Of a DNA stretch of 64,000 nucleotides, positions 29,808 to 31,542 are shown piece by piece (position 1 is the stretch's first letter; the number at the start of each line of letters is the position of its first letter). Where the stretch lies: NCBI RefSeq assembly GCF_057098645.1, contig NZ_CM169472.1; one strand, written 5' to 3'. The translations under genes were made by a program, and so were the position numbers. The notes under the pieces were generated by a model. That model saw only the letters and a program-made list of their open reading frames with translations. It did not search any database and was not told the origin of the DNA.

Positions 29808-31329
29808 GGCTTATCACGCGCGGCTGGCGTTCCAGAATACGAGTGTTGCGTGCGGCTTCTTCGCCCAGCCAGGTGGTGTTGGTGCGTGAACCTTCGGCGC
29901 GATATTTTTCTAAATCCGACAAACGCACCATATAACCGGTAACGCGAACCAGATCGTTACCGCTGACATTAGCGGTAAATTCACGCATTCCGGCTTTAAA
30001 GGCACCGAGGCAAAGCTGTACCAGCGCCTGCGGATTACGTTTGATGGTTTCGTCGAGCGTCAGAATGTCGCTGATGCCGGAATAATAATAAGCATGATGC
30101 GGGGCGACAGTTTGCAGATGGGTGATCGGATCTGGCTCATCGCCATACGGCAAACGCGCGCCCGGCGTGGTGCCGATATCGGAACTGATCCCCGACTGTG
30201 CGTGTAACATGGCGCGTTTTTGCCAGCCATATTTCACGGGGGTATTGGCGACAAACTCCGCCAGTTGCGCGCTGATGCGATAACCTACTTCATTTGCGGC
30301 GGCTTCTTTACCGTAGCGCGCGGCAATCCCTTCTTTTTCACACAGCAAGTTAACCGCTTCCGCCAGCCCATACATGCCAAACATTGGCACAAAACGTTCA
30401 GGGTTAATCAGCCCTTCTTTCACCAGGAAGCTATTCTCAAAGAAGTGTGATTGTTGATAGAGGAATTCACACCGCGCATCGATGATGGCGATCTGCTGCT
30501 GGCAGTAGTGCGGTAGAGTGCGCGTAAAGAAGTCATCCAGCGATTCGCTGCGCTCGGCAATGGCTTTCAGGTTAAGGCGTACCAGCGTGCTGCCACCACC
30601 CGCCAGCGGCAGTGAGTTGTAACAGCTCACTATCCCGTAGCCCCCTTTTGTGAAAATTTTATCATGCACCGGACCGTTGGCGACGTGCGGTTTGCTACAT
30701 TCACAGATGTTTTTCGCCACTTCCAGCAGCAGGTCATCAGGGGTGATTTCAGGATCGTAGATAAAGGTCAGGTTCGGTGAAACCTGCTTCAACTCTGCGT
30801 CTGCACGTAAGATTGCACGGGTAATGGGCGAATCAGACGGGCCGATATTGGCGTGCATAAAGGCGTCTGGCAGGGTTCTGTCGAGGTAACGCCAGAAACG
30901 TTTTATTCGAAGATCGATCTCGTCTTGTGTTAGAATTCTAACATGCGGTTGCAACAACACATCCAGTTGCCCCAGGTAGACCGGCATCGATGTGACCGAC
31001 GGTACGTGGTGGTAAAGAATGGTCAGCAGAGAGAGTGCGTCATCAAGATCTTTCGCGCCTTCCAGCTCCAGCCATTCGGAACCGTTCGCCAGAAAACGGG
31101 CGTAATCGGGTAAGACATAGCGCGGTTTGTACGGCGCATGACCTTCAAACATATCGCAGATTACACCTTCATCCAGCGCGCGGCGGGCTTCGGCAGGAAG
31201 CTGTGGGTAAGGCAGATTGTTTTCTGCTTCCAGTGCCAGAAAATGGCGCTTCTGCTCCGGGCTAAGCACTGGGCTGGTGACAATTTGCTGGCAACGTTGT
31301 TGCAGTGCATTTTCATGAGAAGTGGGCAT
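29779..31329 (-). CDS. yjjI: Glycyl-radical-enzyme-like protein YjjI
   Basis: 516 aa, directly upstream of and overlapping the activase yjjW. Confidence 0.9.
30928..30943. promoter_or_regulatory. DeoR operator O1 (deoP1)
   Basis: Perfect palindrome TGTTAGAATTCTAACA. It is 599 bp from the second copy, matching the known O1-O2 spacing. It lies inside the 5' coding part of yjjI. Confidence 0.75.
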
Positions 31330-31526
31330 CTTCTTTTCCTTTTATGCCGAAGGTGATGCGCCATTGTAAGAAGTTTCGTGATGTTCACTTTGATCCTGAT
31401 GCGTTTGCCACCACTGACGCATTCATTTGAAAGTGAATTATTTGAACCAGATCGCATTACAGTGATGCAAACTTGTAAGTAGATTTCCTTAATTGTGATG
31501 TGTATCGAAGTGTGTTGCGGAGTAGA

Positions 31527-31542
31527 TGTTAGAATACTAACA
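31527..31542. promoter_or_regulatory. DeoR operator O2 (deoP2)
   Basis: TGTTAGAATACTAACA, 45 bp upstream of the deoC start. Confidence 0.75.

Follow-up and report, generated by a model that had tools for sequence, protein, structure and literature searches.

DeoR operators and the deoP1 promoter of the Escherichia coli deoCABD control region lie within the divergent gene yjjI

In Escherichia coli, the deoCABD operon and the divergently transcribed glycyl radical enzyme gene yjjI are separated by an intergenic region of 257 bp, which raises the question of where a deo control region with repressor operators hundreds of base pairs apart is accommodated, and how its presence marks the neighboring gene. 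We addressed this question in a window of 64,000 nucleotides, the whole stretch of DNA analyzed here (RefSeq assembly GCF_057098645.1, contig NZ_CM169472.1), in which the gene order is yjjW-yjjI on the minus strand, followed by deoC-deoA-deoB-deoD on the plus strand (Table 1). Because the intergenic region is only this long, any element 599 bp upstream of O2, the operator nearest to deoC, falls inside yjjI, and for the same reason P1, O1, and OE all lie within the first 681 nt of the yjjI coding sequence. We are almost certain that the region is the E. coli deoCABD control region, with three DeoR operators (starting at 30649, 30928, and 31527) and the tandem promoters P1 and P2. The three operators, their spacing, and the presence of a deo promoter within yjjI are already known, the last of these also following from the genome coordinates, and our own addition to this known region is a modest one, a quantified dual-coding signature in yjjI.

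An earlier sequence-only reading of this DNA had reported two perfect or near-perfect DeoR palindromes at 30,928 and 31,527, 599 bp apart, and both are present as described. The 16-bp DeoR palindrome has the form TGTTAGAA-TTCTAACA or TGTTAGAA-TACTAACA; O1 and O2 match it exactly and are equal to the palindromes quoted from the primary literature in PMC5326754, with O2 corresponding to the published TGTTAGAA-TACTAACA. In the window, O1 is a perfect palindrome over its 16 bp, and the dyad symmetry of O2 is broken at one central position. When up to three mismatches were allowed across the 64-kb window, the sole extra match was an unrelated three-mismatch site at 2126 (shuffle expectation at three mismatches, 0.84), and exact 16-mers are not expected by chance. 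The start-to-start distance of 599 bp, taken from the window coordinates, agrees with the separation reported for the DeoR-repressed promoters deoP1 and deoP2 (PMC3334521), so the spacing is indeed the classical one. O1 covers nt 387-402 of the coding sequence, from the third base of codon 129 through codon 134 of a 516-codon frame, and its placement about 400 bp inside the 5′ coding part of yjjI is therefore accurate; codons 130-134 read GTT AGA ATT CTA ACA and encode the peptide V-R-I-L-T. Sequences and spacing also agree with the published deoP1/P2 maps, and Choe et al. 2019 (PMC6389913) place a deoCABD promoter "in an upstream gene, yjjI." The proposal that the deo control region reaches into yjjI thus holds for O1 and P1, but it had overlooked a third operator, OE.

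OE lies exactly 279 bp upstream of O1, that is, further inside yjjI, where it takes up the third base of codon 222 and codons 223-227 (peptide D-K-I-F-T), and it agrees with the O1 palindrome at 12 of 16 positions. A third site, OE, has been described ~300 bp upstream of O1, together with an O1-O2 distance of ~600 bp and in vivo measurements of DeoR looping between O1 and O2 (PMC8053113), and the window has this three-operator layout, with 599 bp between O1 and O2 and 279 bp between OE and O1, close to the ~280-300 bp expected. A text search of the literature for the figures of 279 and 878 bp returned neither of them. In K-12 the exact distance between OE and O1 is 279 bp, in agreement with the K-12 alignment.

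Table 1. Features of the yjjW-yjjI-deoCABD region, in window coordinates
Feature	Sequence or product	Position	Strand	Basis
yjjW	glycyl radical enzyme activase	28944-29807	-	TIGR04041 at 4e-117
yjjI	YjjI-family glycyl radical enzyme, 516 aa	29779-31329	-	TIGR04040, PF11230, RefSeq annotations
OE, DeoR operator	TGTGAAAATTTTATCA	30649-30664	.	spacing to O1, conservation, literature layout
Conserved element upstream of deoP1	CGCCAGAAACGTTTTATTCGAAG	30890-30912	+	low synonymous variation
O1, DeoR operator	TGTTAGAATTCTAACA	30928-30943	.	sequence match; published palindrome
yjjI promoter (predicted)		31363-31403	-	conserved intergenic blocks
deoP2 activation/anti-activation module		31438-31512	+	CRP consensus, conserved blocks
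CRP-2 core	TTTGAACCAGATCGCA	31441-31456		CRP consensus with 2 mismatches
CRP-1 core	TGTGATGTGTATCGAA	31494-31509 (center 31501.5)		CRP consensus with 2 mismatches
O2, DeoR operator	TGTTAGAATACTAACA	31527-31542	.	sequence match; published palindrome
deoCABD operon		31587-35866	+	NCBIfam equivalog matches
deoC		31587-32366	+	TIGR00126
deoA		32493-33815	+	TIGR02643
deoB		33867-35090	+	TIGR01696
deoD		35147-35866	+	TIGR00107; start from RefSeq annotation of a 99.9% identical strain

The predicted -10 hexamer of deoP1, TAGAAT (30931-30936), lies inside O1, and that of deoP2, also TAGAAT (31530-31535), lies inside O2; in both operators it is preceded by TGn, forming an extended -10 (TGnTAGAAT) in the deo orientation upstream of deoC. 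Since O1 has the same arrangement of TGn and TAGAAT as O2/P2, it can reasonably be taken as the site of P1. Scanning 30500-31700 for generic sigma-70 promoters and terminators returned chance-level matches only; P1 and P2 were both missed, because their -35 hexamers are poor. In the deoP2 literature, CRP-1 is centered at -40.5 and CRP-2 at -93.5. Counting from the CRP-1 center, P2 would start near 31542, which is 45 nt before the deoC ATG, and the 599-bp offset would therefore put the P1 start near 30943. Transcripts from P1 would then carry a leader of ~644 nt antisense to the start of yjjI, the antisense orientation following from the position of P1 in an oppositely transcribed gene. The conserved CGCCAGAAACGTTTTATTCGAAG element lies at ~-53 to -31 from this P1 start, in yjjI codons ~139-147, and its third codon positions are conserved; by its position, it is probably the -35/UP region of P1, with no -35 reported there by the simple promoter scan. 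At deoP2, the CytR region lies between the CRP-2 and CRP-1 cores, with conserved blocks in an alignment of 71 intergenic sequences. As a separate observation on the P1 leader, a terminator-like hairpin, GCAACGTTGTTGC followed by AGTGCATTTT (31291-31303, plus strand), occurs between P1 and P2 within yjjI codons ~9-13, and such hairpins are found at chance level in shuffled sequence (2 found, 1.6 expected).

The K-12 deo region and its looping by DeoR are reportedly the subject of Valentin-Hansen et al. 1986 (EMBO J 5:2015), Dandanell et al. 1987 (Nature 325:823), and Amouyal et al. 1989 (Cell 58:545). What is said here of DeoR binding, of looping, and of promoter activity is carried over from the literature on the identical K-12 sequence. 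In the established model, multimeric DeoR holds two or three operators at once, looping the intervening DNA (279, 599, or 878 bp). Looping in this model shuts both P1 and P2, and deoxyribose-5-phosphate releases DeoR. In addition, two cAMP-CRP sites serve to activate P2, with CytR as anti-activator, following the CRP/CytR mechanism described for deoP2 (PMC3454398). Natural looping has been reported up to ~900 bp (PMC4217526).

The 1.3-kb region was found in 5423 of the 5426 complete E. coli genomes and is 99.9% identical to that of O145:H28 strains, where RefSeq annotates the same genes. A 1001-nt alignment to K-12 MG1655 contained zero indels and showed no difference in O1, O2, OE, either CRP core, or the deoC ribosome-binding region; O1 corresponds to K-12 positions 4616664-4616679, inside yjjI (b4380, 4615515-4617065). 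The window thus holds the same locus as the K-12 deoCABD regulatory region, sharing the 599- and 279-bp spacings, and differs from it in strain-level single-base changes only. At 30945, two bases beyond the 3′ end of O1 and at about +2/+3 relative to the predicted P1 start, the window carries a private A-to-G change; the A is kept in K-12, in the closest O145:H28 strain, and in nearly all other genera. This substitution converts Tyr129 (TAT) of YjjI to His (CAT), Y129H, and the 61-mer around it had no 100% match among the 5426 complete E. coli genomes (best match, 98.4%). Another difference from K-12 is at 30912 in the P1 upstream region, which is G in the window and C in K-12. Downstream of the control region, deoC codon 2 (31590-31592) also varies, the protein beginning M-I-D (ATT) in the window and the O145:H28 strain and M-T-D (ACT) in K-12.

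The host gene is well supported as a coding sequence. The yjjI product matched TIGR04040 (aa 11-504, 7e-236; 783 bits, cut-off 498) and PF11230 (aa 22-504, 1e-218; 727 bits), and yjjI is followed by the YjjW-type activase gene, which matches TIGR04041 and shares 29 nt with the 3′ end of yjjI. Comparison of 29500-32500 with Rfam found no known RNA element over the control region and returned a sub-threshold naRNA4 match alone. That match lies in the deoC-deoA spacer (32428-32467, plus strand; 21.9 bits, gathering score 59.5, E=0.66) and is possibly a REP-type element.

We then compared the arrangement across species using a YjjI scan with one genome per species, keeping the best 80 of 295 loci. 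deoC was divergently adjacent to yjjI in all Enterobacteriaceae genera recovered and in Hafnia and Edwardsiella, with two loci ending short of deoC. A codon-aware alignment was built from 77 deo-adjacent yjjI genes, whose median third-position identity to the window is 55%. O1 was exact in 55 of these 77 loci and had at most two mismatches in all 77, OE was identical in 65 of the 77, and O2 was conserved across genera with 1-4 mismatches. When the loci were scanned for operators from -700 to +900 with up to four mismatches, every deo-adjacent locus had O1, and most had O2 and OE; a call for O2 and/or OE was missing from 13 loci, in two of which O2 lies beyond the fetched DNA, and only one additional site was seen, in a Proteus locus. 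The distance between OE and O1 was always 279 bp, and that between O1 and O2 ranged from 568 to 626 bp, so a conserved O1-O2 helical phasing was rejected. This variable distance fits the reported distance tolerance of looping.

To quantify the double use of the sequence, normalized synonymous-codon entropy was calculated in 502 six-codon windows over the whole of yjjI, with a gene mean of 0.656. OE had an entropy of 0.011, the lowest-ranked of the 502, and O1 an entropy of 0.034 (ranks 4-6), making them the two least synonymously variable stretches of yjjI among the 77 deo-adjacent loci; the likely reason is the DeoR operator in OE and the DeoR operator together with the P1 -10 in O1. Codons 138-147 (30889-30918) form the third-lowest region (0.18-0.23), likely owing to the P1 upstream/-35 region, and codons 508-516 (0.25-0.30) are likely held by the overlap with the start of yjjW. 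Two of the O1 codons are minor ones in yjjI: AGA accounts for 2 of its 33 Arg codons and CTA for 2 of its 57 Leu codons. Across genera, O1, OE, and the P1 upstream element are thus under strong purifying selection at the nucleotide level. Codons 296-303 also have low entropy (0.23). Within them, codons 296-301 (30427-30444, TTC TTT GAG AAT AGC TTC), ~220 bp beyond OE, vary little at synonymous sites within Enterobacteriaceae (0.23 vs 0.656), keeping GAG and AAT, and differ in Hafnia, Edwardsiella, and Proteus. As just 9 of the 16 operator positions match, codons 296-301 were rejected as a fourth DeoR site.

In four Proteus species, deoC was not found within 4 kb of yjjI, and ytjB, serB, and radA lie upstream instead. 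These genes, located at ~3000-4000 in the Proteus loci (L078-L081) before yjjI-yjjW, are downstream of deo in E. coli, so the deo operon appears to be absent or displaced from this position in Morganellaceae. Proteus yjjI has an operator-like site at neither the O1 nor the OE position, and its homologous codons differ both at synonymous sites and in the residues encoded, which are V-G-x-L-T and D-A-V-F-G. The lowest synonymous variation in the gene, together with the absence of the sites in Proteus, marks the sites as selected as DNA beyond the reading frame. Among 22 more distant YjjI homologues, the segments containing the operator-bearing positions, right after conserved motifs, are variable and prone to indels. 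Loop placement was judged from the variability of the family alignment; a solved YjjI structure was looked for, and none was found. The most economical interpretation is that tolerant loops of YjjI accommodated the operators and P1, which then froze both DNA and peptide where deo abuts yjjI. The direction of change, operators being gained in yjjI, is suggested by a comparison in which one sister family without the arrangement was sampled at the DNA level.

Two other accounts of the overlap and of its conservation were weighed against these data. If the yjjI start were misannotated and the real gene began downstream of O1, O1 and P1 would be intergenic, and the family profile does leave the first ~10 residues of yjjI uncovered. 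However, TIGR04040 and PF11230 span the protein from aa 11 and aa 22, respectively, through aa 504, the N-terminal third can be aligned in homologues of 33-57% identity, and the invariant residues E62, R70, Y71, P74, G83, L102, Y106, G120, and D123 are encoded upstream of O1; nucleotide variation near O1 and OE also sits at third codon positions. A misannotated start as the source of the overlap is thus effectively refuted, with a probability close to nil. Hardly more probable is that the invariance at codons 129-134 and 222-227 comes from constraint on the YjjI protein, on codon usage, or on the mRNA. The VRILT and DKIFT peptides are conserved within Enterobacteriaceae, as a protein constraint would have it, but selection on protein leaves synonymous sites free, and the entropy at these codons is ~0.01-0.03 against 0.656 gene-wide. 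The frozen codons moreover include the minor AGA and CTA, the frozen stretches are exactly the 16-bp operators, the same positions are variable and indel-prone in the wider YjjI family, and Proteus, without an adjacent deo, differs in codons and residues. Selection on the operators and promoter as DNA is therefore the reading that we retain.

Auxiliary operators within coding sequence are found elsewhere, such as lac O2 inside lacZ and gal OI inside galE. As in those systems, the deo repressor would loop a promoter-proximal operator to one embedded in an ORF, and coding and binding constraints act at once on the same DNA. In lac and gal, however, it is the first gene of the regulated operon that contains the internal operator, whereas in deo two operators and an entire promoter lie in an oppositely transcribed neighbor of unrelated annotated function. 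The locus is thus a compact natural example of DNA serving both as codons and as operator and promoter, and its dual use is measurable as frozen synonymous sites, minor codons, and variable protein loops. We found no description of this dual-coding signature in the searched literature, in which older subscription papers are mostly absent. The 5′ third of yjjI is not purely coding, since mutation or recoding there can change deo regulation, and 30649-31542 should carry a deo control region label in annotation.

A promoter for yjjI itself can also be proposed. Besides the deoP2 elements, two blocks are conserved in the 71-sequence intergenic alignment, CATTGTA (31362-31368) and TTTGATCC (31389-31396). 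The first contains the -10 of a predicted yjjI promoter, TACAAT on the minus strand (31368 to 31363), and the second an FNR-like half-site, TTGAT (31390-31394), ~41 bp upstream of the predicted start near 31355. Both yjjI and yjjW have been listed as FNR-activated (PMC2634741) and as having an FNR-like motif (PMC3228777). A search for the FNR consensus at ≤2 mismatches did not return the candidate site, whose full palindrome has 3 mismatches, and we propose this promoter tentatively because the full palindrome is poor and only the TTGAT half is good and conserved. A promoter at this position would lie inside the O1-O2 loop and face P1 across ~413 bp.

Interference, as the earlier reading had suggested, or a roadblock is geometrically possible, because the two promoters face each other and a polymerase transcribing yjjI must pass O1 and OE. 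DeoR at O1/OE, or the O1-O2 loop, might then slow yjjI, and in the released state P1 might fire head-on into it, coupling yjjI to deoxynucleosides. The geometry is consistent with such coupling, with P1 on the plus strand near 30943 opposite the predicted yjjI promoter on the minus strand near 31355, and O1 and OE in the path of the polymerase, and so is the divergent yjjI-deoC order kept across Enterobacteriaceae, Hafnia, and Edwardsiella. However, yjjI is described as activated by FNR and groups with nitrate and nitrite genes rather than with deo genes (PMC3228777, PMC2634741), and the known role of the operators in deo repression fully explains their conservation. No paper in the searched literature treated yjjI together with DeoR. 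We consider the coupling unlikely, and the same holds for the broader proposal that a DeoR roadblock or loop and P1 transcription modulate FNR-dependent yjjI-yjjW and that the operators fixed VRILT and DKIFT in variable loops. If true, the coupling would tie an enzyme of unknown substrate to deoxynucleoside availability, and the operator-fixed VRILT and DKIFT would offer a clear example from nature of protein sequence set by a regulatory site. More speculatively, an effect of the embedded promoter or repressor on yjjI would provide a first regulatory handle on this glycyl radical enzyme.

Some resemblances to CRP sites were also seen in the window. O1, O2, and OE each match the CRP consensus TGTGA-N6-TCACA with two mismatches, and OE has a perfect TGTGA in its left half. 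Sites with two mismatches numbered 18 in the window against 27 expected, and because they occur at chance frequency, the resemblance of the operators may mean nothing. Elsewhere in the window, a perfect CRP consensus palindrome, TGTGACGTGGATCACA, occurs with 0 mismatches at 44927-44942. Two divergent ORFs flank it, one aldo-keto-reductase-like (43864-44874, minus strand) and the other for a LysR-family regulator (44915-45895, plus strand), the real start of the latter being probably near 45011.
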